A stretch of DNA of 17,898 bases from a virus (IMGVR_UViG_648276670_000009:1-17898); one strand, 5' to 3'; numbered from the stretch's first letter, positions 4,328-17,898 are shown. Notes: generated by a model from the letters alone, not told the origin. Numbers and translations: made by a program.

Positions 4328-5704
4328 TCATACGTCAGCCCCTTGTGCATATCGTCTGCCACGTGCAGCGGGTGCATTTGATGTTGTGCAAATCTGTCTG
4401 GCTTCATCCTGGTCACATGCAACAAAGTGTCCGTTGCAGAACCGCTGGTAAACCGTACCAAGCGAGCCAAAACGGTTTTTCGTCACAATGATTTCAGCAA
4501 ATGGCGCGGCGCTACTGTTCTCGTCATATACCGCTTCCCGATAGAGCATGATGATTGAGTCTGCGTCCTGTTCAATGCTTCCTGAATCACGCAAATCTGC
4601 GTTTGTCGGGCGTTTATTTGGTCGCTTCTCAACATCGCGCGAAAGCTGACTTAGGGAGATAACTGGCGTTTTCAGGTCTTTCGCCATCGCCTTCAGGCTT
4701 CCGGAGATGTGAGCAATTGCGAGGTCGTTGCGGTCTGCTTTCGGCTTCTCAATCAGGCCAAGATAATCCGCCATGATGAGTGACAGGTTTGGATTTTCCT
4801 GTTTGTGCCGTTCTGCGATTGAGCGTATTTCTTCGACCGATAACCGCGAGGCATCGACTACCCATACATCCAAATCTGCAAGCTGACTCATGCCGTTAGC
4901 AACACGCGCCCAGCCTTCGTCATCCATCGATGCAGGATTTCGCAGTACGCTAACCGACATCCTCCCGGCGTTGGCAATGCTTCGCTCTGCAATCTGCAAT
5001 GCGCTCATTTCCATTGAGAAAATCAATACCCCGCGCCGGACGTCAGAACCAGGAATAACGCGGCTTGCAACGCCTTCGGCAATCTTCAGCGCCAGTTCGG
5101 TTTTCCCCATACCAGGACGAGCAGCGATTATCACAAGGTCTTCTGCGTTCATCCCTCCGGTGATAGCGTCAAGTTCTTCGATTCCGGTCTTCAGGGTATC
5201 TGACTCTTCTCCGTTCCTCAGACGCCTGTCAAGCGTGTCAGTGTAGTCGGTGATGATTTCCCCTAACCGTACAGGTTTAACCTCGTCACGTGGCTTTCTG
5301 ATGGCTGAAAGACGCTTTACAAGCTCATCCATCGCCTGACTCGATGTATCGATGGTTCCGCTCTGAATTGGTTCACGCATTTCATCCATGATTTCCAGCA
5401 CCAGACGGCGGTGATAGTTATCCGCGACCATTCCGGCATATCCCTTCAGGTTTGCGGCACTCGGGCAGTTTTTGCTGGTCATCAGGATTGACGTGAAATG
5501 CTCCTCTCCGCACGCCTCGGCAACCATCAGCGCATCGATTAGGTTTCTGTTTCTCGCCTGCTTGCGGATAACCTCGAAGGCTTTCCGGTAGAGCGGAATT
5601 GAAAACGCTTCCGGCTCCAGCGTTGCCAGAACGTCGCTGGCGGTTGGTGTTAATCCACCAATCAGCAGGCCACCGATAACGCTCGCTTCGATATCCTGTC
5701 TCAT
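4328..5704 (-). CDS. DnaB-family replicative helicase (P22 gp12-like)
   Basis: 458 aa; Walker [13 protein letters not shown], Walker B-like [11 protein letters not shown]-terminal domain resembling DnaB ([15 protein letters not shown]); start overlaps the stop of the upstream O-like gene. Confidence 0.8.
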
Positions 5705-6648
5705 GCAATCCCCCTGTCTGCAAACTTCCCTTCCCGTACTCCCGTTAACGAATCTTCCCTCAGCAGGTAATCAAAATCTGCCGTCCAGCCCGTGTCGTTG
5801 TCTCCGAAGTAAAACGGCTTGGCCTGATGCACAAACGCCCTGACATACGCTCTGAAACCGTCCACGTTTGGCGTTTTCAGTTGCGGGATGATTTTCTTCA
5901 GGCGGCGTTTGCGTTTCTCGTTGACCGCAACAGCATGTGGAAGTCTGTCACCGACTTCGGTGTTGTAGGCGTTCAGGAAGGATTCGTAGTCGATTCGTTC
6001 TGCCTTGCGACGTTCAGGTTTAACCTGCCCATCGCCTCCCCCATTGGGGGGTAGGGGGGTATTATTTATATTCTTGTTAATACCTTCTTGTTCATGATGT
6101 GCGGTTGTTTGTGCGGCTTCATGTGCGCTTTCATGTGTGGCATGTACGCTGAAAGCCGCGCCATTACTGGCTTCATCATGTGCGGCATCATGTGCGGTTG
6201 TTTGTGCGGCTTCATGTGCGGGTGAATTGTCCATTTTTTGAGCATATTCATGGTAATTTGTGATGGTGATCACACGACCTTTTTGCTTCTCTCCATCAAT
6301 GGAGATCATCCCCTCTTTCACAAAAACCTGAAGCATCCGCTCAACCTGATCGCGGCTTGCTGGCTTGCCATGCCTGTCGCATAACTGAAGACCTAAATCA
6401 GCTGCTGTCACAACCAGTTGACCGGGTTGCAGATGCCATTCATGACCTTTGAAATTCGCTTTGTATGGCTTTCTGGCGGCATTCAGGAGAAGGTTTTCCC
6501 ACAGGGTGCGAAGATAAACATCTTTCGCCCATGACTGTTTCAGAATGCTCCGGTACAACGGAATGTAACCAGTTTTCTGGTTCTCCATCCTGTTGCTCCT
6601 GCGCTCGTGTGCGGCGCTGAAATCGTAGATTTTTGCTGTATTGCTCAT
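5701..6648 (-). CDS. Replication initiator (lambda O / P22 gp18-like) with internal iteron-encoded linker
   Basis: 315 aa; N-terminus [10 protein letters not shown] resembles lambda O MTNTAKILNF; central repetitive segment [18 protein letters not shown]...[13 protein letters not shown] is encoded by the direct repeats at 6066..6235; sits upstream of the helicase as in P22 18-12. Confidence 0.7.
6066..6235. repeat. Putative replication origin iterons inside the initiator gene
   Basis: Repeated TCATGTGCGG / CATGTGCG(G/C/T)-type units, with a duplicated ~40-nt block (catcatgtgcggttgtttgtgcggcttcatgtgcg). In lambda, ori iterons also lie within O. Confidence 0.6.
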
Positions 6649-6650
6649 AA

Positions 6651-6923
6651 CTACCTGCCTTGACGAAAGACCTTAAGAACATCGTTAAACTGACTTACGG
6701 ATATGTCTTCTTTGAGCAGCTTTTCCAGAAATGCGTTTGGAATGAACGTATATCCCTCCTCTTTTGGTAGAGACGGGAGCAACGCCCTCGCCTCAGCCTT
6801 CAGAAGCTCAGTTCTGGCAACTTTCACAAAAGAGATTTGAGTTCTTTCATCAATGGAACGAAGGAAGCGCAAACGCTTAGCTTCTTTGTGTGTATCAGGT
6901 GGATTAAAGCCTTTGTTTCGCAT
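6651..6923 (-). CDS. Hypothetical protein (90 aa) between cII and the initiator gene
   Basis: In the long ORF 6651..7235 only the part from the ATG at 6923 (MRNKGFNPPDTHKE...) lies downstream of cII; GAGGT sits 7 nt upstream of it. No recognised family. Confidence 0.45.
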   Translation of the reverse strand: MRNKGFNPPDTHKEAKRLRFLRSIDERTQISFVKVARTELLKAEARALLPSLPKEEGYTFIPNAFLEKLLKEDISVSQFNDVLKVFRQGR

Positions 6924-6934
6924 ATAATTACCTC

Positions 6935-7002
6935 GTTGGATGTTGTTAAAATTCCATTTGTATTTGATCAGAACGCTCGGTCTTGCACACCGGGCGTTTT
7001 TT
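6935..7002 (+). ncRNA. OOP-like antisense RNA overlapping the cII 3' end
   Basis: Plus-strand TATAAT at 6923..6928 and, ~65 nt downstream, a hairpin CGCTCGGT(loop)ACCGGGCG followed by TTTTTTATT (6974..7002) inside the 3' end of cII, the arrangement of lambda oop. Ends are approximate. Confidence 0.45.
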
Positions 7003-7242
7003 ATTGGTGAGAATCGAAGCAACTTGTCGTGCCAATCGAGCCATGTCGTCGTCGACGACGCCCCATTCAAGAACAGCAAGCAGCATTGAGAACTTTGGAA
7101 TCCAGTCCCTCTTCCACCTGCTGATCTGAGACTTATCAACGCCAACAGCTTCCGCTGTCTTCTCAGTTCCAAGCATTGCGATTTTGTTAAGCAACGCACT
7201 CTCGATTCGTAGAGCCTCGTTGCGTTTGTTTGCACGAACCAT
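6946..7242 (-). CDS. cII: Transcriptional activator CII
   Basis: From MVRANKRNEALRIESALLNKIAMLGTEKTAEAVGVDKSQISRWKRDWIPKFSMLLAVLEWGVVDDDMARLARQV..., near-identical to recalled lambda CII. The ORF-track extension upstream of this Met is not used. Confidence 0.9.
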   Translation of the reverse strand: MVRANKRNEALRIESALLNKIAMLGTEKTAEAVGVDKSQISRWKRDWIPKFSMLLAVLEWGVVDDDMARLARQVASILTNKKRPVCKTERSDQIQMEF

Positions 7243-7321
7243 ATGTAAGTATTTCCTTAGATAACAATTGATTGAATGTATGCAAATAAATGCACACACC
7301 ATAGGTGTGGTTTAATTTGAT

Positions 7322-7353
7322 GCCCTTTTTCAGGGCTGGGATGTGTAAGAGCG
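7322..7353 (-). promoter_or_regulatory. nutR (boxA + boxB) N-utilisation site
   Basis: Minus strand reads CGCTCTTACA (boxA) then GCCCTGAAAAAGGGC (boxB hairpin), between cro and cII. Confidence 0.8.
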
Positions 7354-7361
7354 GGAATGTC

Positions 7362-7577
7362 TTAAGCGGCTTTGTGTTCCGGCGGGAACACGTCATCAAG
7401 ACTGACTTTTGCGCCTAACTTGTTTAGGCATGCAACAAGAGCGCGGCATGTTTTAAGGTCTGGGAAGCGACGACCAGATTCCCAATGCCCAATAGCTCCC
7501 TGTGTGCATCCAACCGCCTTAGCAAGTGTTGTTTGAGAGATATTCAGTGACTCTCGATATTTTCGTAGGTTGCTCAT
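7362..7577 (-). CDS. cro: Cro-like repressor (XRE-type HTH, non-lambda specificity)
   Basis: Start at the internal ATG 7577 (MSNLRKYRESLNISQTTLAKAVGCTQGAIGHWESG...), preceded by GGAGGG; divergent from cI across an operator region; an HTH similar to the N-terminal domain of the adjacent cI. Confidence 0.75.
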   Translation of the reverse strand: MSNLRKYRESLNISQTTLAKAVGCTQGAIGHWESGRRFPDLKTCRALVACLNKLGAKVSLDDVFPPEHKAA

Positions 7578-7688
7578 ATGCCCTCCATAGTAACCATGAG
7601 ACAATAATACGATATGTACTTTTGGAATGCAAACAAAAAATACATCTTGTGCATGGATGGTTTTAGTACAGAGCGTAATAATAAGGAT
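7578..7688. promoter_or_regulatory. OR-like divergent promoter/operator region (PR toward cro, PRM toward cI)
   Basis: On the minus strand, TTGCAT (7632..7627), 17-nt spacer, TATTAT (7609..7604) upstream of the cro leader; several GTAC / AATAC-containing partial palindromes are candidate operator half-sites. Operator boundaries are not resolved. Confidence 0.55.
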
Positions 7689-8348
7689 ATGAAAATGAAA
7701 TGGTATGAACTGGCTAGATCCAGAATGAAAGAGCTCGGCATAACTCAAGAGAAGTTAGCTGAAGAGCTTGGTATGACGCAGGGTGGAATTGGTCACTGGT
7801 TGCGCGGATCTCGTCATCCATCTCTTGACGAGATTGGTGTGGTGTTTAAATACCTTGGTATTGATAACGTCTCATTCAACCACGACGGTACATTTTCACC
7901 TGTTGGCGAATACTCATCTGCCCCCGTTAAAAAACAATATGAGTACCCTGTTTTTTCTCATGTTCAGGCCGGGATGTTCTCGCCTGAGCTTAGAACCTTT
8001 ACCAAAGGTGATGCGGAGAGATGGGTCAGCACAACCAAAAAAGCCAGTGATTGTGCGTTTTGGCTTGAAGTTGAAGGTAATTCCATGACCGCGCCAACAG
8101 GATCCAAGCCAAGCTTTCCTGACGGGATGTTAATTCTCGTTGACCCTGAGCAGGCTGTTGAGCCAGGTGATTTCTGCATAGCCAGACTTGGTGGTGACGA
8201 GTTTACCTTCAAGAAACTGATCAGGGATAGCGGTCAGGTGTTCCTACAGCCACTAAACCCGCAATATCCAATGATTCCATGCAATGATAGCTGTTCCGTA
8301 GTAGGGAAAGTTATCGCCAGCCAGTGGCCTGAAGAGACATTTAGTTAA
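7689..8348 (+). CDS. cI: CI repressor: lambda-like C-terminal S24/LexA-type autocleavage domain fused to a divergent N-terminal HTH domain
   Basis: C-terminal ~135 aa ([39 protein letters not shown]...[15 protein letters not shown]) near-identical to recalled lambda CI; the N-terminal ~90 aa is unlike lambda. Start could be 7689 or 7695 (MKMKW / MKW); the track ORF starts further upstream at 7614. Confidence 0.85.
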
Positions 8349-8380
8349 CAGCCTCACCACTCTAAAACACACAACAATAA

Positions 8381-8409
8381 CCCGACCTTAGCGTCGGGTT
8401 TTCTTTTTC
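8381..8409 (+). terminator. Intrinsic terminator downstream of cI
   Basis: CCCGAC(loop CTTAGC)GTCGGG hairpin followed by TTTTCTTTTT, 33 nt after the cI stop. No rex-like genes lie between cI and pL. Confidence 0.6.
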
Positions 8410-8473
8410 CAAAATATAAACCCATTAAATACAAAGTGTTATAAAAAACTAATTATATTTAGAACATTTTGTA

Positions 8474-8502
8474 TTGACTCGATAAAGTACAAATCGTACT
8501 AT
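8474..8502 (+). promoter_or_regulatory. pL-like early leftward promoter (with OL operators upstream and overlapping)
   Basis: TTGACT (8474..8479), 17-nt spacer, TACTAT (8497..8502), followed by ATCAGCAGGACGCACT as in the recalled lambda pL transcript start; AATACAAA(A/G)TGT motif in both orientations at ~8427..8472 and an AGTAC-N5-GTACT palindrome at 8487..8501 are candidate operators. Confidence 0.7.
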
Positions 8503-8542
8503 TTAGCCATCAGCAGGACGCACTAACCGCCATGAAGGTGAG

Positions 8543-8572
8543 GCTCTTAAAAATTTAGCCCTGAAGAAGGGC
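8543..8572 (+). promoter_or_regulatory. nutL (boxA + boxB)
   Basis: GCTCTTAA (boxA) followed by GCCCTGAAGAAGGGC (boxB stem-loop), upstream of N. Confidence 0.8.
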
Positions 8573-8682
8573 AGCATTCAAAGCAGAAAGCTTTGAGTAG
8601 CGCGAAATGCAGCTGCAAGACAGCAACCGTGGAGATAAGCATCACGGCGCGTTACTCAAAGCTAACTGACAGGAGAATCCAG

Positions 8683-9009
8683 ATGGATGCACAAACACGC
8701 CGCCGCGAACGTCGCGCAGAGAAACAGGCTCAATGGAAAGCAGCAAATCCCCTGTTGGTTGGGGTAAGCGCAAAACCAGTTAACCGCCCTATTCTCTCGC
8801 TGAATCGCAAACCGAAATCACGAGTAGAAAGCGCACTGAATCCGATAGACCTTACGGTGCTGGCTGAATACCACGAACAGATTGAAAGCAACCTGCAACG
8901 TATTGAGCGCAAGAATCAGCGCACATGGTACAGCAAGCCACGCAGTGAAATGGGTGTGACTTGTGTTGGTCGCCAGAAAATGAAATTAGGCAGCAAGCCA
9001 CTTATTTGA
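8683..9009 (+). CDS. N: Antitermination protein N
   Basis: From MDAQTRRRERRAEKQAQWKAANPLLVGVSAKPVNRPILSLNRKPKSRVESALNPIDLTVLAEYH..., near-identical to recalled lambda N (Arg-rich boxB-binding motif); AGGAG RBS before ATG 8683. The track ORF start at 8593 is not used. Confidence 0.9.
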   Translation: MDAQTRRRERRAEKQAQWKAANPLLVGVSAKPVNRPILSLNRKPKSRVESALNPIDLTVLAEYHEQIESNLQRIERKNQRTWYSKPRSEMGVTCVGRQKMKLGSKPLI

Positions 9010-9018
9010 GGTGATGGA

Positions 9019-9651
9019 ATGAGCAATAGAATTGATGGAGAGATTATCAGGGGCGTAATTAATGACCCTCGCCTTTTTCCAGGAATAAAGCGCTCAAGAG
9101 CAGGAGCATCTCAGCTCTTTGGTGAGCGCATAGTCAAAGGCGGGAAGCTTATACAAGAATGCGACTTCGAGCTAACTCCTCCAGTAAAAAGCTGGTACTC
9201 AAAGGAAATTGATGGGGTTTGGCATTGGGTTGAGGGTTGCGATCACTGCAATGGTTCTCCTCAGGACTGGGCGTATTGCAGATGCGAAAAGCATGATGTT
9301 TGTGTTGATTGCGGAATTGATAGAGAGCACGCGTCAACGTCACAAACCATAGCTGGAATGGGTGCTGTCTGGGGATGTCGTGGTGGATGGCGATGCAATG
9401 ATTGCCAAGAGAAAATTAATCAGGAACGCCTAGCAGCAGCTGAGGCAAGAATTATTCCTGACGATGAATATGATGAGCTGGATTTTTGGCGCAGAGATGA
9501 GGCTCGCTGCCCATGGTGTAAGGCTGAAATATCCACCGATGAATCATACGACGCCTGCGAAGAAGAGCATACATGCTATGAATGCGAGCGTAAGTTCAAG
9601 CTTACAGCTGAGCATTCAGTATCGTGGACAACGATTCGCTCAATCAAATAG
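9019..9651 (+). CDS. Hypothetical Cys-rich protein (multiple CxxC pairs; probable zinc-binding)
   Basis: 210 aa with CDHC, CRC, CVDC, C-x5-CNDC, CPWC, C-x5-CYEC motifs; GAGGTG RBS; first gene after N, in the slot occupied by ral/sieB in lambda. No recognised family. Confidence 0.6.
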   Translation: MSNRIDGEIIRGVINDPRLFPGIKRSRAGASQLFGERIVKGGKLIQECDFELTPPVKSWYSKEIDGVWHWVEGCDHCNGSPQDWAYCRCEKHDVCVDCGIDREHASTSQTIAGMGAVWGCRGGWRCNDCQEKINQERLAAAEARIIPDDEYDELDFWRRDEARCPWCKAEISTDESYDACEEEHTCYECERKFKLTAEHSVSWTTIRSIK

Positions 9652-9696
9652 GCCGCATAGTCGGCCTTCTTTTGGCATAAACAACATGGGGTAAAA

Positions 9697-10023
9697 ATGA
9701 AAGTTTTAATGGTTTATGAAAATGTTCCAGAGTCGACTGAAATCTATATTTTTGATGCCAATGAAGATGAAGTTAACGATTTAAAATTGTCTCACGGCAA
9801 TTACACAAATGCTAATTGTGATGAAAGCATCGAAAAAGCACTATCACGTGTTCTTGTCAGAATCAGCGATCCAGAACATTGTGATAATGATTGGCTTTCT
9901 TATTGTGGAGCGGTAAAAACTGATGCAGGAAAATGGAGTAAAAGTAAAGTTGATAACTCAACTCCAATCATTATGAAAGATAGTGATATTGAAATGGTAA
10001 TAATAACCGGAATGATTATGTAG
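9697..10023 (+). CDS. Hypothetical small acidic protein (108 aa), AT-rich moron-like gene
   Basis: ATG ORF with visibly lower GC than its neighbours; ~20 Asp/Glu versus ~10 Lys/Arg by my count; followed by a 9-bp-stem hairpin (10033..10060) and an intrinsic terminator. No recognised family. Confidence 0.5.
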   Translation: MKVLMVYENVPESTEIYIFDANEDEVNDLKLSHGNYTNANCDESIEKALSRVLVRISDPEHCDNDWLSYCGAVKTDAGKWSKSKVDNSTPIIMKDSDIEMVIITGMIM

Positions 10024-10129
10024 GCTGCGAATAAGCACTGTGTATTCATTCAAACGAGTGAATACACGGAGCAATGTCGCTCGTAACTAAACAGGAGCCG
10101 ACTTGTTCTGATTATTGGAAATCTTCTTT

Positions 10130-10156
10130 GCCCTCCTATGTGAGGGCAATTTTTTT
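10130..10156 (+). terminator. Intrinsic terminator (tL-type) upstream of the 322-aa gene
   Basis: GCCCTC(loop CTATGT)GAGGGC followed by AATTTTTTT. Confidence 0.6.
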
Positions 10157-10168
10157 GATGGAGGATAT

Positions 10169-11137
10169 ATGAGTGAAGTAACAGACTTAGTTGTTATTGA
10201 AAAAGCAAATGCAATGACTGTATTTCAGTCTGCAGACCAGATTGAAGAAATCCTTCAAAAGGTTGAACGTGAAGTTATGTCCTTTGTGCCTGATATCACA
10301 ACGGCAAAGGGCAGAAAGGAGATCGCTTCTCTGGCGTATAAAGTTGCGCAGACGAAAACATATCTCGATGGTCTTGGCAAAGACCTTGTTGCTGAACTGA
10401 AGGAAATTCCAAAGCTAATTGATGCTAACCGCAAGACAGTGCGTGATCGCCTTGATGAGCTGAAAGCCAAGGCGCGCCAGCCTCTTACTGATTATGAGGA
10501 AGAACAGGCGCGGATTAAAGCCGAAGAAGAAGCTAAGGCAGCAGCTGAAGCTCTCGCAAAGCAAATTGAGTCTGACCATGAAATAGCTATTTTGATGGAT
10601 CGCGAATTTGACCGCCAAAGAGAAGAGGCAAGACTCAAAGCGGAGCAGGAAAAGCGAGAGCATGAAGAACGCTTAAAAAAAGAAGCTGAAGAGAAAGCCA
10701 GAGCTGAAGCCGAAGAAAAGGCAAAAGCCGAAATTGAAGCAGCAGCAAGGCGAGAAGCAGAAGCTAAGGCCGCAGCGGAACGTGCAGAGCGTGAACGCAT
10801 TGAAGCCGAGCAACGAGCACAGCGCGAAGCAAAAGAGGCAGCAGAACGAGCTGAAAGAGAAAAGCAGGCGGCAATTGAAGCAGAACGCCGAAAAGCACAG
10901 GAGGAGGCTGAACGAATCCGGCGCGAGGCTGAAGCAAAAGAGCAAGCCAGAATAGCAGAAGAAAAAAGAATCAAGGAAGAGGAAGAGTGTAGAGCAAAGG
11001 ATAAAGCTCACCGGAAAGAAGTAAATAACAAAATACTTGCTGACCTTATCAAGGTTGGCGCATCAGAAGATGTTGCTAAAAATATCATAACAGCCATCGT
11101 AAAAGGCGAAGTATTCGCAACAAAAATAACCTACTAA
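10169..11137 (+). CDS. Hypothetical protein with a long charged Glu/Ala/Lys/Arg-rich alpha-helical (coiled-coil-like) central region
   Basis: 322 aa from ATG 10169 (GGAGG RBS 5 nt upstream); the track ORF starts earlier at 10115. Central ~150 aa is low-complexity EEAKAAAEALAKQ...AEEKAKAEIEAAARREAEAKAAAERAERERIEAE; the globular N-terminus and C-terminus are not recognised. Confidence 0.65.
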   Translation: MSEVTDLVVIEKANAMTVFQSADQIEEILQKVEREVMSFVPDITTAKGRKEIASLAYKVAQTKTYLDGLGKDLVAELKEIPKLIDANRKTVRDRLDELKAKARQPLTDYEEEQARIKAEEEAKAAAEALAKQIESDHEIAILMDREFDRQREEARLKAEQEKREHEERLKKEAEEKARAEAEEKAKAEIEAAARREAEAKAAAERAERERIEAEQRAQREAKEAAERAEREKQAAIEAERRKAQEEAERIRREAEAKEQARIAEEKRIKEEEECRAKDKAHRKEVNNKILADLIKVGASEDVAKNIITAIVKGEVFATKITY

Positions 11138-11161
11138 TAAAACCAACATAAGGAACCACCC

Positions 11162-11293
11162 ATGATTTACGCAATCGCGGGAGGCGCTCGCATGGGTGCC
11201 TTCCAACTAAATGAATCTTTACTTGAACGAATCACCCGTAAATTACGTGACGGATGGAAAAGAGTTGAGGTCTTATTATGCGCAATGAAATAG
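11162..11293 (+). CDS. cIII: CIII-like protease (FtsH) inhibitor, divergent C-terminus
   Basis: 43-aa ORF (below the track cut-off) MIYAIAGGARMGAFQLNESLLERITRKLRDGWKRVEVLLCAMK; core ESLLERITRKLRDGWKR matches recalled lambda CIII. Confidence 0.7.
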   Translation: MIYAIAGGARMGAFQLNESLLERITRKLRDGWKRVEVLLCAMK

Positions 11294-11430
11294 CCATCAA
11301 TCACCAGATGCTTCGTGCTGCACAGAACAAAGCAGTAATAGCCAGATTTATTGGTGATTCCAAAATGTGGCTTGAAGCAAATAAAGCGATGAAATCAGCT
11401 ATCAACCTTCCATGGTATCGCAGGAAATGA
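11278..11430 (+). CDS. kil: Kil-like host cell-division inhibitor
   Basis: 50-aa ORF MRNEIAINHQMLRAAQNKAVIARFIGDSKMWLEANKAMKSAINLPWYRRK; resembles recalled lambda Kil (…TFIGDEKMF…); overlaps the cIII stop; position matches lambda cIII-kil. Confidence 0.55.
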   Translation: MRNEIAINHQMLRAAQNKAVIARFIGDSKMWLEANKAMKSAINLPWYRRK

Positions 11431-11504
11431 GTTTTACAGATAACTGGTCAGACGAAGAATTCATTCGTCAGATGAAAGAATTAATCGGTAACGAAGGAGA
11501 TATT

Positions 11505-11675
11505 CATGTCACTTGCAACCACAGTGAAGGAGAGCAAGTTACAGAGACGCATGTACACGCAGCAGGCGTTAATGTATCGCCAGAAGGGAGATCGTGAAGG
11601 TGTTCGCGTATTTTTAAATGCGGCAAAGACTGAAGTATTAAATCAGCGTTATTTCCTTGGGCCATGTCCATTCTG
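11505..11675 (+). CDS. Hypothetical small protein (56 aa) upstream of erf (Arf-like position)
   Basis: ATG 11505 preceded by AGGAG at 7-nt spacing; MSLATTVKESKLQRRMYTQQALMYRQKGDREGVRVFLNAAKTEVLNQRYFLGPCPF. An alternative overlapping frame (track ORF 11412..11597, or ATG 11427 coupled to the kil stop) cannot be excluded. Confidence 0.45.
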
Positions 11676-11686
11676 AGAACAAACAT

Positions 11687-12292
11687 ATGAGCAAAGAATT
11701 TTACGCAAAACTGGCAGCTATTCAGGAGAACTTGAACGCGCCAAAGAATCAGTACAACTCATTCGGTAAATATAAATACAGAAGCTGCGAAGACATTCTT
11801 GAAGGCGTTAAGCCGTTACTGAATGGTCTGTTTTTATCAATCAGCGATGAAGTTGTGTTGATTGGTGATCGGTATTACGTGAAAGCCACGGCAACTATTA
11901 CCGATGGCGAAAACAGTCATACGGCAACCGCTCTTGCACGAGAGGAAGAAAGCAAGAAAGGAATGGATTCTGCACAAGTTACGGGAGCTACAAGCTCTTA
12001 TGCACGCAAGTATTGCCTCAATGGTTTGTTCGGCATTGATGATGCGAAAGATGCAGATACCGACGAGCATAAACATCAGCAGAACGCAGCAGCAAAGCAA
12101 TCAAAACCATCACCTACACCTGAACAGGTTCTAAAAGCATTCACTGACGCAGCATTGCAGAAAAACACCGTAGAAGAGCTTAAACAGGCGTTCGCCAAAG
12201 CGTGGAAGATGCTCGAAGGCACACCTGAGCAGCACAAAGCGCAGGACGTTTACAACATCAGACGAGACGAATTAGAAGGAGCGGCTGCTTAA
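11687..12292 (+). CDS. erf: Erf-family single-strand annealing recombination protein (P22 Erf-like)
   Basis: From MSKEFYAKLAAIQENLNAPKNQYNSFGKYKYRSCEDILEGVKPLLNGLFLSISDEVVLIGDRYYVKATATITDGENSH..., closely matching recalled P22 Erf. The track ORF begins at a TTG at 11657; the ATG at 11687 is used. Confidence 0.85.
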   Translation: MSKEFYAKLAAIQENLNAPKNQYNSFGKYKYRSCEDILEGVKPLLNGLFLSISDEVVLIGDRYYVKATATITDGENSHTATALAREEESKKGMDSAQVTGATSSYARKYCLNGLFGIDDAKDADTDEHKHQQNAAAKQSKPSPTPEQVLKAFTDAALQKNTVEELKQAFAKAWKMLEGTPEQHKAQDVYNIRRDELEGAAA

Positions 12293-12675
12293 TGGCACAT
12301 TCGATTACTGTAAGACTAAACAAGCCCGCAAGAGAGTTTCAGGCCGGGGAAAATATCGGATTCAACATCCGTGCTGGCGTTCAGTATTACGATCGCCAGA
12401 CAAAAAAGAAAGAATGGACAAACTACAGCGCCGTTGTATTTGCCAAGCCGGGAGCGCAAGCGGATTACTACCGTAGTGTTCTTGTTGAAGGTGGCATTGT
12501 GGAAATTACCGGAGAAAACATCAGGGTTGATGTTTATCAGGGGCAAAATGGTCAATCAATCACTCTTGAATTACTGAATGCAAAGATTGGATTTGCAACT
12601 TCAGGAAACAGCCAACAGCAGCAAAGTAGTAACCAGCAGAACACTCCTGTATACGACGATTCCATCCCATTCTGA
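12292..12675 (+). CDS. Single-stranded-DNA-binding protein-like (acidic C-terminal tail ending DDSIPF)
   Basis: 127 aa; Gln/Ser-rich linker and terminal ...PVYDDSIPF resemble the SSB C-terminal protein-interaction tail (DDDIPF); start overlaps the erf stop (TAATG). Confidence 0.65.
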   Translation: MAHSITVRLNKPAREFQAGENIGFNIRAGVQYYDRQTKKKEWTNYSAVVFAKPGAQADYYRSVLVEGGIVEITGENIRVDVYQGQNGQSITLELLNAKIGFATSGNSQQQQSSNQQNTPVYDDSIPF

Positions 12676-12698
12676 TTTAGAAAAATAAGGATTTAATT

Positions 12699-12992
12699 AT
12701 GCCAGCGCCTCTGTATGGTGCGGATGACGCGCGCCGCTGTTCCGGCAATTCCGTATCGGAGGTGCTGGATAAATTCAGAAAAAACTACGACCGGATAATG
12801 TCGCTACCGCAGGAAACGAAAGAGGAAAAGGAATTTCGCCATTGTATATGGCTTGCAGAGAAAGAAGAGCGCGAGCGAATTTACCAGACATCAATCCGAC
12901 CATTCCGCAAAGCAACATATACCCACTTCCCTGAAATCGACCCGCGCCTGCGTAATTACCGCTCACGCTATGGCGCTATCAGTAATAACTGA
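12699..12992 (+). CDS. Hypothetical protein (97 aa)
   Basis: ATG ORF with AAGGA upstream; no recognised family. Confidence 0.5.
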
Positions 12993-13002
12993 GGAATTTA
13001 CC

Positions 13003-13170
13003 ATGAGAGGACTTGCATACAATCCCGGCATTCTTCCGGCAGAAATGATTATTCGCCAACGCGTAAAGCCAATGCCATCGAGAGAGGAATTGCTTAAGAG
13101 AAATTCTTTTCCATCAGTGAATCAAAACAAATATCTGAATGCGATGTGGCGCAAAGGAGGCAGCCAGTGA
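13003..13170 (+). CDS. Hypothetical protein (55 aa)
   Basis: ATG 13003 preceded by GAGGAA; lies in the frame of track ORF 12853..13170, whose upstream part overlaps the previous gene. Confidence 0.45.
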
Positions 13171-13811
13171 ATAACCGCTTTTACATGATGTGCTTGCGTG
13201 AAACTGTGGGTAATAACGCTTCATTCCATTGCCATAACGGCAATGGTTACAGTTCTAATATCGATCGCGCTCATGTTTACACGCTGGAAGAAGCCCAAAA
13301 AGCCTGGAATTGTGGTCGAGATATCGATCAGCCTGTTTGCGCTGATAGCGTGGATGCAATGGCAGTGTGGCACGTTGATTGCCAGTACATCCCTACAGAA
13401 AGCCTGATTGAGTCAGATTGCACTGCGTATGTGGCCTACAAAAAAGGTAGCTGGAACGGCAACGATGTTTACTGGCTTCAACACGGTGGATTGCCAACAG
13501 ATGACTTCAGTAAAGCGACCATCTTTAGCGTCGCCAACAAAAACGAACCAGGAATAGTTTGGTTGCCATTTTCCATTGCTGATGCAGCAAAGCGCAGGAC
13601 GTTCAATATCAATAACTTTAACCGCAGAACAATGGTTCAGGGCGCAGGTTTGGTCATGCCTGACTGGTTGAAAGAGCAGAACAGAAGAAAGAAGTCGCGA
13701 AGCGGGAAGGTGCGTTGGAATTGTCCGCATTGCGGAAAAATCTCCTGGCAGTACAGCCCATATGATTTTGAAGGCTGTAGTGATTACAACTGTGAAGGAT
13801 GGCGAGAATGA
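13167..13811 (+). CDS. Hypothetical protein (214 aa) with C-terminal Cys-rich zinc-ribbon-like motif
   Basis: GTG 13167 preceded by AAAGGAGG at 6-nt spacing and overlapping the upstream stop (the track ORF starts at 13146); C-terminus WNCPHCGK...CSDYNCEGW. No recognised family. Confidence 0.55.
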
Positions 13812-14295
13812 CAATTGACTATCAGTCACTGCGTGAGGCGGCAGAGAAAGCAACGTGGGGAGACTGGGACTCATATAAACACACCGTGGCGCACGTGGTT
13901 ATGAGGTCCGACTAAGTAGTCAGGCCATTGCGCAACACGTTCTGAAAAACAACGCTGAATTTATTGCTGCCTTTAATCCAAAGGTTGCTTTGGCACTACT
14001 GGATGAACGGGAAAGAAACCAGCAATACATCAAACGCCGCGACCAGGAGAACGAGGATATTGCGCTAACGGTAGGGAAGCTGCGCGTTGAGCTTGAAGCA
14101 GAAAAACAGCGGGCAAAAGTTCTATTTATGGAAAATGCTCGGCTTAAGTCAGGTATAGCCGGTCTGATACACCTCGGTATTCGATATGCAGATGTTGAGG
14201 TCATGAAAATTGCTGGAGATGCCCAGCTTTCTACCCCATGCACTGACAGCATCATAAACAGCATTGCAACAGGCATTCGCATCAAAGGAGAGTAA
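13799..14295 (+). pseudogene. ea22-like gene, disrupted (N-terminal 38-codon piece and C-terminal piece in different frames)
   Basis: ATG 13799 encodes [38 protein letters not shown] then stops at 13913..13915; a different frame continues open from ~13916 (...QAIAQHVLKNNAEFIAAFNPKVALALLDERERNQQYIKRRDQENEDIALTVGKLRVELEAE...) to 14295. Both pieces resemble recalled Ea22-family proteins. Confidence 0.5.
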
Positions 14296-16650: not shown

Positions 16651-17898
16651 CTATATTGCTGAAGGTACAGGCGTTTCCATAACTATTTGCTCGCGTTTTT
16701 TACTCAAGAAGAAAATGCCAAATAGCAACATCAGGCAGACAATACCCGAAATTGCGAAGAAAACTGTCTGGTAGCCTGCGTGGTCAAAGAGTATCCCAGT
16801 CGGCGTTGAAAGCAGCACAATCCCAAGCGAACTGGCAATTTGAAAACCAATCAGAAAGATCGTCGACGACAGGCGCTTATCAAAGTTTGCCACGCTGTAT
16901 TTGAAGACGGATATGACACAAAGTGGAACCTCAATGGCATGTAACAACTTCACTAATGAAATAATCCAGGGGTTAACGAACAGCGCGCAGGAAAGGATAC
17001 GCAACGCCATAATCACAACTCCGATAAGTAATGCATTTTTTGGCCCTACCCGATTCACAAAGAAAGGAATAATCGCCATGCACAGCGCTTCGAGTACCAC
17101 CTGGAATGAGTTGAGATAACCATACAGGCGCGTTCCTACATCGTGTGATTCGAATAAACCTGCATAAAAGACAGGAAAAAGTTGTTGATCAAAAATGTTA
17201 TAGAAAGACCACGTCCCCACAATAAATATGACGAAAACCCAGAAGTTTCGATCCTTGAAAACTGCGATAAAATCCTCTTTTTTTACCCCTCCCGCATCTG
17301 CCGCTACGCACTGGTGATCCTTATCTTTAAAACGCATGTTGATCATCATAAATACAGCGCCAAATAGCGAGACCAACCAGAAGTTGATATGGGGACTGAT
17401 ACTAAAAAATATGCCGGCAAAGAACGCGCCAATAGCATAGCCAAAAGATCCCCAGGCGCGCGCTGTTCCATATTCGAAATGAAAATTTCGCGCCATTTTT
17501 TCGGTGAAGCTATCAAGCAAACCGCATCCCGCCAGATACCCCAAGCCAAAAAATAGCGCCCCCAGAATTAGACCTACAGAAAAATTGCTTTGCAGTAACG
17601 GTTCATAAACGTAAATCATAAACGGTCCGGTCAAGACCAGGATGAAACTCATACACCAGATGAGCGGTTTCTTCAGACCGAGTTTATCCTGAACGATGCC
17701 GTAGAACATCATAAATAGAATGCTGGTAAACTGGTTGACCGAATAAAGTGTACCTAATTCCGTCCCTGTCAACCCTAGATGTCCTTTCAGCCAAATAGCG
17801 TATAACGACCACCACAGCGACCAGGAAATAAAAAAGAGAAATGAGTAACTGGATGCAAAACGATAGTACGCATTTCTGAATGGAATATTCAGTGCCAT
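16651..17898 (-). CDS. cscB: LacY-family oligosaccharide:H+ symporter, sucrose permease CscB-like
   Basis: 415-aa ORF with 12 hydrophobic segments, starting at the last base of the window (ATG 17898..17896); recalled as matching CscB of the E. coli csc sucrose regulon, which is known to lie near argW. Confidence 0.7.
   Translation of the reverse strand: MALNIPFRNAYYRFASSYSFLFFISWSLWWSLYAIWLKGHLGLTGTELGTLYSVNQFTSILFMMFYGIVQDKLGLKKPLIWCMSFILVLTGPFMIYVYEPLLQSNFSVGLILGALFFGLGYLAGCGLLDSFTEKMARNFHFEYGTARAWGSFGYAIGAFFAGIFFSISPHINFWLVSLFGAVFMMINMRFKDKDHQCVAADAGGVKKEDFIAVFKDRNFWVFVIFIVGTWSFYNIFDQQLFPVFYAGLFESHDVGTRLYGYLNSFQVVLEALCMAIIPFFVNRVGPKNALLIGVVIMALRILSCALFVNPWIISLVKLLHAIEVPLCVISVFKYSVANFDKRLSSTIFLIGFQIASSLGIVLLSTPTGILFDHAGYQTVFFAISGIVCLMLLFGIFFLSKKREQIVMETPVPSAI

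Follow-up and report, generated by a model that had tools for sequence, protein, structure and literature searches.

Two uncharacterised accessory cassettes in the slot downstream of N in a lambdoid Escherichia coli prophage

Lambdoid phages carry, immediately after the antiterminator gene N, a small and changeable set of genes, and the question raised by the locus described here is what such genes do when they resemble nothing that is known. The stretch IMGVR_UViG_648276670_000009:1-17898, whose 17,898 nucleotides (nt) we refer to as the window, is the early region of a lambdoid E. coli prophage. Directly 3' of N it contains two open reading frames (ORFs) on the + strand, ORF-A (9019..9651, with its ATG at 9019) and ORF-B (9697..10023, ATG at 9697), which encode proteins of 210 and 108 amino acids (aa). 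The initial annotation had placed two genes of these lengths in the slot directly after N, and its coordinates and lengths are exact. We find that each of the two ORFs is an accessory cassette in its own right, exchanged horizontally and located between N and the tL2 region, and that both are new, uncharacterised occupants of a known kind of locus. As to their role, we assign a probability of roughly 45% to the reading that they are expressed early in the lytic cycle from a recognised hotspot of counter-defence genes, and that their products antagonise host defence or some other host function.

Both ORFs are genuine, selected protein-coding genes without a recognisable relative of known function. 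That they are real genes follows from their membership in conserved families, from ratios of nonsynonymous to synonymous substitution (dN/dS) that are below 0.1, and from confident AlphaFold models. The dN/dS value is 0.09 for ORF-A, compared with the homologous gene of Enterobacter phage CobraSix, and 0.07 for ORF-B, compared with a homologue that is 81% identical; the corresponding model confidences (predicted local distance difference test, pLDDT) are 80.4 and 93.6. ORF-A has homologues in 23 clusters, from phages of Escherichia, Enterobacter, Citrobacter, Cedecea, Lelliottia and Pantoea, and an exhaustive HMMER search yielded 59 clusters of ORF-B at 50% identity, nearly all of them single-domain proteins of 100-116 aa. 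ORF-A matches PHROG 27543 (E 2.7e-29, residues 50-205) and ORF-B matches PHROG 4658 (E 3.6e-38, residues 1-108). Only families of unknown function were retrieved from PHROG for either ORF, and since these two are unannotated, membership in them tells nothing about function.

Comparison of both proteins with Pfam, NCBIfam and PADLOC returned nothing above threshold. BLASTP against Ral, SieB, Ea10, orf28, CIII, Kil and Gam of lambda (taken from NC_001416, as were all lambda proteins used for comparison), and against Nmad5 and Lar, returned nothing, with E values of at least 1.4. Within the set of lambda pL proteins, N, Ral and SieB gave E values of at least 6.4 and Ea10, orf28, CIII, Kil and Gam gave nothing at E <= 10. 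For Ral itself the value was E = 7 with ORF-A, there was no match with ORF-B, and the Pfam Ral family (PF11058) was absent at E <= 0.1 for both. These searches bear out the earlier impression that neither gene looks like ral, sieB or any other lambda gene. A relationship between ORF-A and Nmad5 (PF18757), which can share its slot, was considered and rejected (BLASTP against the Nmad5 protein of prophage L002, E = 73; no Pfam match), and the genes downstream of ORF-A in CobraSix and in E. coli A3, considered as candidate relatives of ORF-B, are unrelated to it. We found no paper that deals with the RefSeq protein accessions or with the PHROG and Pfam identifiers of the two families, and a review of lambdoid early-left operons mentions neither gene.

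The conclusion that the two genes are separate cassettes is based on their distribution and on the structure of the slot. Among 5426 complete E. coli genomes ORF-A is present in 2 and ORF-B in about 18, and they are never matched as one unit. In the larger public collection, proteins identical to ORF-A are found in 177 blocks and those identical to ORF-B in 475. It had been proposed to ask whether homologues sit in the same slot of other lambdoid prophages, and they do: all 18 of the 18 places sampled lie in an early-left operon downstream of a cI-like repressor gene, and after N wherever an N gene was called, with neighbours that vary. The exact pair of ORF-A and ORF-B recurs in at least two further prophages (L011 and L024); between these two, and between each of them and the window, there are differences in the recombination module or in the gene called at the position of N.

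The occupants of the slot can be assigned to two positions. Position 1, directly after N, is taken by Ral, by Ral together with Nmad5, by ORF-A, by unknown genes of 156, 107 or 104 aa, by a 92-aa gene followed by a 140-aa gene, or by the 140-aa gene alone, which encodes a membrane protein of the Sf6 gp34 type. Position 2, which extends from the hairpin that follows ral to the tL2 block, is taken by ORF-B, by a truncated ORF-B or by a gene of 96-98 aa belonging to PF27050 (Phage_P22_Y8K6), and downstream of ORF-A either ORF-B or PF27050 is found. After ORF-A, the PF27050 gene is the commonest position-2 alternative to ORF-B (L012:6678-6974, and likewise in L013, L014, L015, L016 and L018), and it too is an uncharacterised cassette. 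The position-1 genes of 156, 107, 104 and 92 aa (L019:3484-3954, L020:3639-3962, L022:3648-3962 and L023:3189-3467) have no informative match, and in a direct scan the first two of these had no match in Pfam.

A terminator-like hairpin, AGGCCGCATAGTCGGCCT, with a stem at 9650-9667 and a T-rich tail, occupies 9650..9675 on the + strand, between ORF-A and ORF-B. It corresponds to the element found 3' of ral in lambda and of gp34 in Sf6, it is kept upstream of ORF-B in L019-L028, and it marks the boundary between positions 1 and 2. The sequence upstream of ORF-B is constant, whatever gene precedes, and consists of this hairpin followed by TTTTGGCATAAACAAY; about 125 nt downstream of the gene are equally constant. 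When the window is aligned with lambda and Sf6, the two blocks that flank ORF-B are contiguous in both, in the ral-ea10 intergenic region of the former and after gp34 in the latter, so that ORF-B is a precise insertion of 343 base pairs (bp) at 9686-10028 (+ strand), which holds only a ribosome-binding site and the ORF. The insert has a GC content of 33.8%, and ORF-B itself has 33.0% (24.8% at third codon positions), compared with 46.4% for the window; ORF-A, at 47%, is at the level of the backbone. The suggestion that the low GC of the second gene reflects horizontal acquisition is thus upheld.

In all, a variable segment flanked by N and the tL2 block is present in 333 phage records and spans about 720-1650 bp among the 30 records listed. 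The flanks are constant and the inserts differ across related phages, which is what characterises an accessory region. Indeed, Silas et al. (bioRxiv 10.1101/2023.04.06.535777; Nat Commun 2025, PMC12373910) have described the slot between N and tL2 as an accessory region, under the name 'Ral', and in Supplementary File 2 of the preprint its score is exceeded by that of one other region only. The window resembles the accessory regions of these authors, and the lambdoid boundary-sequence and moron concepts, in having variable genes between constant flanks; like such regions, it has known counter-defence genes among the alternatives and a flank that is annotated in Sf6 as 'bsq4 boundary sequence' plus tL2A. 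The 200 genes screened by Silas et al. include no ORF-A, no ORF-B and no protein in which the sequence motif of the ORF-B family occurs. They do include other occupants of the slot, for example UDP0047, which is probably a relative of the Sf6 gp34-type membrane protein, to judge from a shared N-terminal sequence.

ORF-A is very probably a multi-zinc protein, to judge from its invariant ligands. The protein has 15 cysteines, with five CxxC pairs (74/77, 95/98, 126/129, 164/167 and 186/189), one CxC (87/89) and one CxxH (89/92). In 17 homologues, with identities down to 44%, C74, C77, C89, H92, C95, C98, C126, C129, C164, C167, C186 and C189 never vary, in contrast to C87. This leaves a ligand set of 11 invariant cysteines and one invariant histidine, arranged in six knuckles, and these 12 ligands are enough for three tetrahedral zinc sites. 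The conserved Cys/His foursomes in CxxC-type knuckles are those expected of a multi-zinc-site protein, which is what the initial annotation had proposed; its count of six CxxC-type pairs was right as to the number of knuckles, of which five are CxxC and one is C-x2-H. The predicted layout comprises an N-terminal beta domain (about 1-72), in which R18, R25 and R27 are invariant among the 17 homologues, then a Cys/His region with four pairs (74-129), a helix (127-144) and a C-terminal zinc ribbon (164-189).

A search of the PDB with the ORF-A sequence gave only marginal zinc-finger matches (the ZZ domain of CBP, E 0.045; the EL5 RING, E 0.049). Weak local matches to the ZZ finger, to RING and PHD-like domains and to the ribbons of LysW and PaaD support the zinc-finger type. 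Below the Pfam threshold, the commonest match within the family is Lar_restr_allev, found in 7 of 17 members with 13.7-15.5 bits against a cutoff of 28.6 bits. These matches are confined to the C-terminal ribbon (CPWC...CxxC, 164-189), where other zinc-ribbon families score equally. Lar of the Rac prophage (PF14354) therefore resembles ORF-A in this ribbon; it differs in that ORF-A has two further domains that are absent from Lar. Membership of ORF-A in PF14354 was rejected, since an hhalign comparison with an alignment of 27 Lar sequences gave a probability of 27.6% over 31 columns and two zinc knuckles only.

The comparison with Ral is one of position. In lambda, ral occupies the slot described here, in which the accessory genes of the pL operon begin after N. 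At position 1, ral and ORF-A exclude each other in different E. coli prophages, and ral is often followed immediately by ORF-B. Matching hairpins lie 3' of ral and of ORF-A, and Ral is also a small, cysteine-containing protein. Unlike these features, the sequences show no similarity; ORF-A, with its 12 invariant metal ligands, has three times the length of Ral.

ORF-B is a small acidic protein with an isoelectric point (pI) of 4.42 and a net charge of -10, derived from 20 Asp and Glu residues (18.5%) and 10 Lys and Arg. It was first described as a strongly acidic, AT-rich protein of 108 aa, and whereas its acidity and low GC are real, "strongly" overstates these values. Common to the family are the motifs YENIPEST, HGxYxN, GKW and TGF, and 25 of 30 members have a pI of 4.05-4.7. 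The protein is predicted to fold into a compact alpha/beta domain, to which no solved structure was found to be similar, and a search of BFVD with ORF-B retrieved uncharacterised family members only. In one prophage (L017:6679-6993), ORF-A is followed by an ORF-B of 104 aa that is shortened at its C-terminus and is 100% identical over these 104 residues; this version, which lacks the invariant Gly of the TGF motif, may be inactive.

Relatives of ORF-B with 30-35% identity are found in 121 phage records. In Klebsiella Jedunavirus the gene follows that for DNA polymerase, in the T4-like Pseudotevenvirus it is located in the ndd early cluster, three genes from an ndd-like gene in phage Margaery, and in Stephanstirmvirinae it is in the ter cluster. 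Another member of the family (P0086, 39% identity; L113:264-593 and L114:810-1139) is encoded two genes ahead of the DNA-modification gene Mom (PF25680), on a metagenomic contig. A gene of 723 aa and unknown function accompanies Mom, and this is another anti-restriction neighbourhood for the ORF-B family.

When would these genes be expressed? In a consensus scan there was no sigma-70-like site upstream of ORF-A or ORF-B, and the only good one was a pL-like promoter (TTGACT, 17 nt, TACTAT) at 8474..8502 on the + strand. It lies between N and a cI-like repressor gene (7614-8348, +), which is upstream of it, and by analogy with lambda it should drive the entire operon. A site ahead of ORF-B (TTGGCA, 14 nt, TAAAAT) was considered as a promoter and rejected, because the spacer is too short and the site overlaps the start codon; only 29 nt separate the hairpin from that codon. 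A stem-loop scan located a boxB-like hairpin, GCCCTGAAGAAGGGC, at 8558..8572 (+), which we take to match the boxB of lambda nutL. N itself, of 108 aa, is encoded at 8683..9009 (+) and is recognised by Pfam N36 (E 1.5e-26) and PHROG 271 (E 8.7e-27). The Shine-Dalgarno sequence of ORF-A, GAGGTGA, is located 9 nt past the N stop codon. Both ORFs are co-oriented with N, and there are terminator-like hairpins between and after them. In lambda, RNA polymerase modified by N passes through the tL terminators. Given this analogy, and since no promoter-like site precedes either ORF, transcription would come from pL after N antitermination, which should place both genes in the immediate-early lytic class and leave them unexpressed in the lysogen. 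In keeping with this, the CobraSix homologue of ORF-A opens the early-left operon of that phage, and ORF-B homologues lie in the ndd early cluster of T4-like phages.

These considerations also decide whether ORF-B is a moron, as had been suggested. It is a discrete insert with deviant composition, as morons are; the second mark of a moron, its own promoter active in the repressed prophage, was not found for either ORF in the consensus scan, and in this ORF-B is unlike the classical moron, which is defined by its promoter. Further, the terminators that flank ORF-B belong to the conserved backbone and its homologues occur in virulent phages. The suggestion is therefore not sustained: ORF-B is a horizontally acquired cassette and not a classical promoter-bearing moron.

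The reading that we prefer, antagonism of host defence or host function, may be set out as follows. ORF-A and ORF-B would be made from pL once N antiterminates the intervening hairpins, and, like Ral, both proteins would then neutralise a host defence or seize a host function at the moment when the DNA of the phage first becomes exposed. ORF-A would be a binding protein built on a zinc scaffold, with three Cys4/Cys3His sites. ORF-B would be a small, acidic, stoichiometric inhibitor, with a fold that is common to temperate and virulent enterobacterial phages. The slot provides the counter-defence context, since in other prophages it holds Ral and Nmad5, and so do the location of an ORF-B homologue two genes from Mom and the presence of Gad1 in the operon of a Cedecea prophage that carries an ORF-A homologue. 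From genomic position only, the counter-defence role is plausible. Several observations weigh against it. Neither protein has a PADLOC or NCBIfam match, nor one above threshold in Pfam. The homologues of ORF-A in Pantoea phages LIET2 and Nafs113 and in the metagenomic phage L110 are placed in a manner that would also fit a role in DNA transactions, and among virulent phages the surroundings of the ORF-B homologues are not consistent (DNA polymerase, a ter cluster, ndd). Accessory regions also carry genes with other roles, such as inhibitors of cell division and exclusion proteins.

The main rival concerns ORF-A, which might be a nucleic-acid-binding factor, that is, a regulator of transcription or RNA polymerase or an accessory of replication or recombination, and not an antagonist of defence. 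Zinc ribbons and treble-clef fingers are typical of proteins that bind nucleic acids and RNA polymerase, and the sub-threshold matches of ORF-A include zf-dskA_traR, Zn_ribbon_SprT, RNA polymerase subunit P, TFIIE and the ZZ finger. The invariant arginines of the beta domain, R18, R25 and R27, would suit such a role, as would the location of the homologue in LIET2 and Nafs113, which is within a module for replication and nucleotide metabolism, among genes for a helicase, a VRR-NUC protein, a beta-clamp-like protein, an endonuclease and Dam; in L110 it is next to, and after, a DUF968 gene. On the other hand, all of these matches are below threshold and are scattered over many unrelated zinc-ribbon families, and the protein is acidic overall (pI 5.1, net charge -11). 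In the lambdoid prophages of E. coli, Enterobacter and Cedecea, the site of ORF-A is the accessory slot, outside the recombination and replication modules, and the gene can be done without there, as its replacement by ral or other genes shows. We regard this explanation as unlikely, while ranking it first among the alternatives.

A second alternative is that both genes encode host-takeover factors unrelated to immunity, such as inhibitors of division, transcription, proteolysis or the nucleoid, comparable to Kil, CIII and Ndd. Kil and CIII are encoded in the same operon of related prophages, the proximity of the ORF-B homologue to an ndd-like gene in Margaery points in the same direction, and small acidic early proteins often inhibit host enzymes. 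Neither protein is similar to any such factor, however, and the sporadic distribution, with genes swapped in and out of the slot, is more typical of genes engaged in an arms race than of core takeover functions, so that this possibility seems improbable.

Less probable still is that ORF-B is a DNA mimic of the Ocr/ArdA type, with a negative surface that fills the DNA-binding groove of type I restriction enzymes; a DNA-mimic anti-restriction function had been raised for the acidic protein on first inspection. The family is consistently acidic, ORF-B often follows ral directly, and it shares with T7 Ocr and ArdA its small size, an early expression that is suggested by its position, and an anti-restriction neighbourhood. 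Its charge is far less extreme than that of these proteins, and neither an extreme negative charge nor a fold like that of a solved mimic was found; a net charge of -10 with 18.5% acidic residues, in a compact alpha/beta domain that matches no solved structure, does not support the idea. The weakest alternative, that one or both genes benefit the lysogen by superinfection exclusion or defence, as sieB or rexAB do, can draw on the foreign composition and sharp boundaries of ORF-B and on the presence of sieB in the same general region of lambda, but we consider it very unlikely, because the only strong promoter is pL, which the repressor shuts in the lysogen, both genes are parted from the co-oriented N only by terminator-like hairpins, there is no PADLOC match, and relatives of ORF-B occur in strictly virulent phages (T4-like, Jedunavirus and Stephanstirmvirinae), for which a benefit to the lysogen is meaningless, so that the predicted early-lytic expression and this distribution together argue against both a moron and an exclusion role.

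We return to antagonism of the host, in order to consider what would follow from it. In its boldest form, ORF-A would be a new zinc-dependent anti-restriction or anti-defence protein that stands in functionally for Ral as the first accessory protein encoded by the pL operon. ORF-B would be the founder of a counter-defence family of unsolved fold, directed against a widespread component of host immunity, which temperate lambdoid phages would have in common with virulent phages of Enterobacteriaceae from the T4-like, Jeduna-like and Stephanstirm-like groups. This extension is tentative and we think it doubtful. The slot after N is among the most variable accessory regions in coliphages; it has already yielded Ral and holds many candidates. 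ORF-A and ORF-B are common occupants of it, as the 177 and 475 blocks show, that are unannotated and for which no relative was detected among solved structures. If either antagonises a defence it would represent a new family of inhibitors and, through its target, a possible handle on the mechanism of that defence, and ORF-B, being present in several groups of virulent phages, would matter for the range of hosts that therapeutic phages can infect. Otherwise the two are phage ORFans of the ordinary kind, located in a hotspot that is already known.

Outside the E. coli slot, ORF-A homologues were also found as the first gene of the early-left operon in CobraSix and after N in a Cedecea prophage, where Gad1 is encoded in the same operon. 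The Cedecea gene, of 324 aa and assigned by Pfam to Gad1 (anti-Gabija), is at the relative position of a 322-aa gene in the window (10169..11137, +), which forms the right flank of the variable slot. This gene encodes a Glu/Lys/Ala-rich protein of the Sf6 gene 33 type that carries the PGAP label 'TolA'. A relationship between the two was rejected, as BLAST detects no similarity. The 322-aa protein is coiled-coil-like, with an AT skew of up to 0.72 over 10600-10900; it belongs to PHROG 1376, of unknown function, and has no Pfam match. A further homologue of ORF-A, with 29% identity, is Gp_83 of the Bacillus phage vB_Bacillus_1020A (L006:3947-4531), where it is labelled 'DNA methylase'. This label looks like an annotation error, since the protein has no methylase domain or other Pfam domain. 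The same record encodes a lambda-type 'replication O protein', and its assignment to a Bacillus host looks doubtful.

Between ORF-B and the 322-aa gene there is a structured intergenic block, the tL2 region, located at 10029..10156 (+), or at 10024-10165 (about 140 nt) in a wider delimitation. It is the counterpart of the lambda ral-ea10 intergenic region and of Sf6 'bsq4' plus tL2A. The block contains a 12-bp hairpin (10040-10067), a second stem (about 10068-10109) and a terminator-like stem (10128-10149) with a T7 run; a hairpin and a terminator had in fact been reported after ORF-B, and both are present. It folds with a minimum free energy of -51.7 kcal/mol (z -4.7), and 0 of 200 shuffled sequences were as stable. 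A scan of the whole window with Rfam returned no family. More than 300 phage records contain the block, which hardly varies between lambda, Sf6 and many E. coli prophages. Termination may not be its only role: it might, for instance, also act as a regulatory RNA or mark a boundary for recombination.

The remainder of the window has the organisation of a lambdoid early region, and positions 5697-14023 are 100% identical to contig GL884282.1 of the E. coli assembly GCA_000176635.2. Downstream of the 322-aa gene are Erf, an SSB-like gene and others. In the same operon, an ORF of 221 aa (13146-13811) has a C-terminal CxxC...C...C motif (NCPHCGK...CSDYNCEGW). On the - strand, an ORF for a multi-pass permease of 415 aa (16651-17898) reaches the end of the window; it presumably resembles the sucrose permease CscB, which would put the prophage beside the csc locus.

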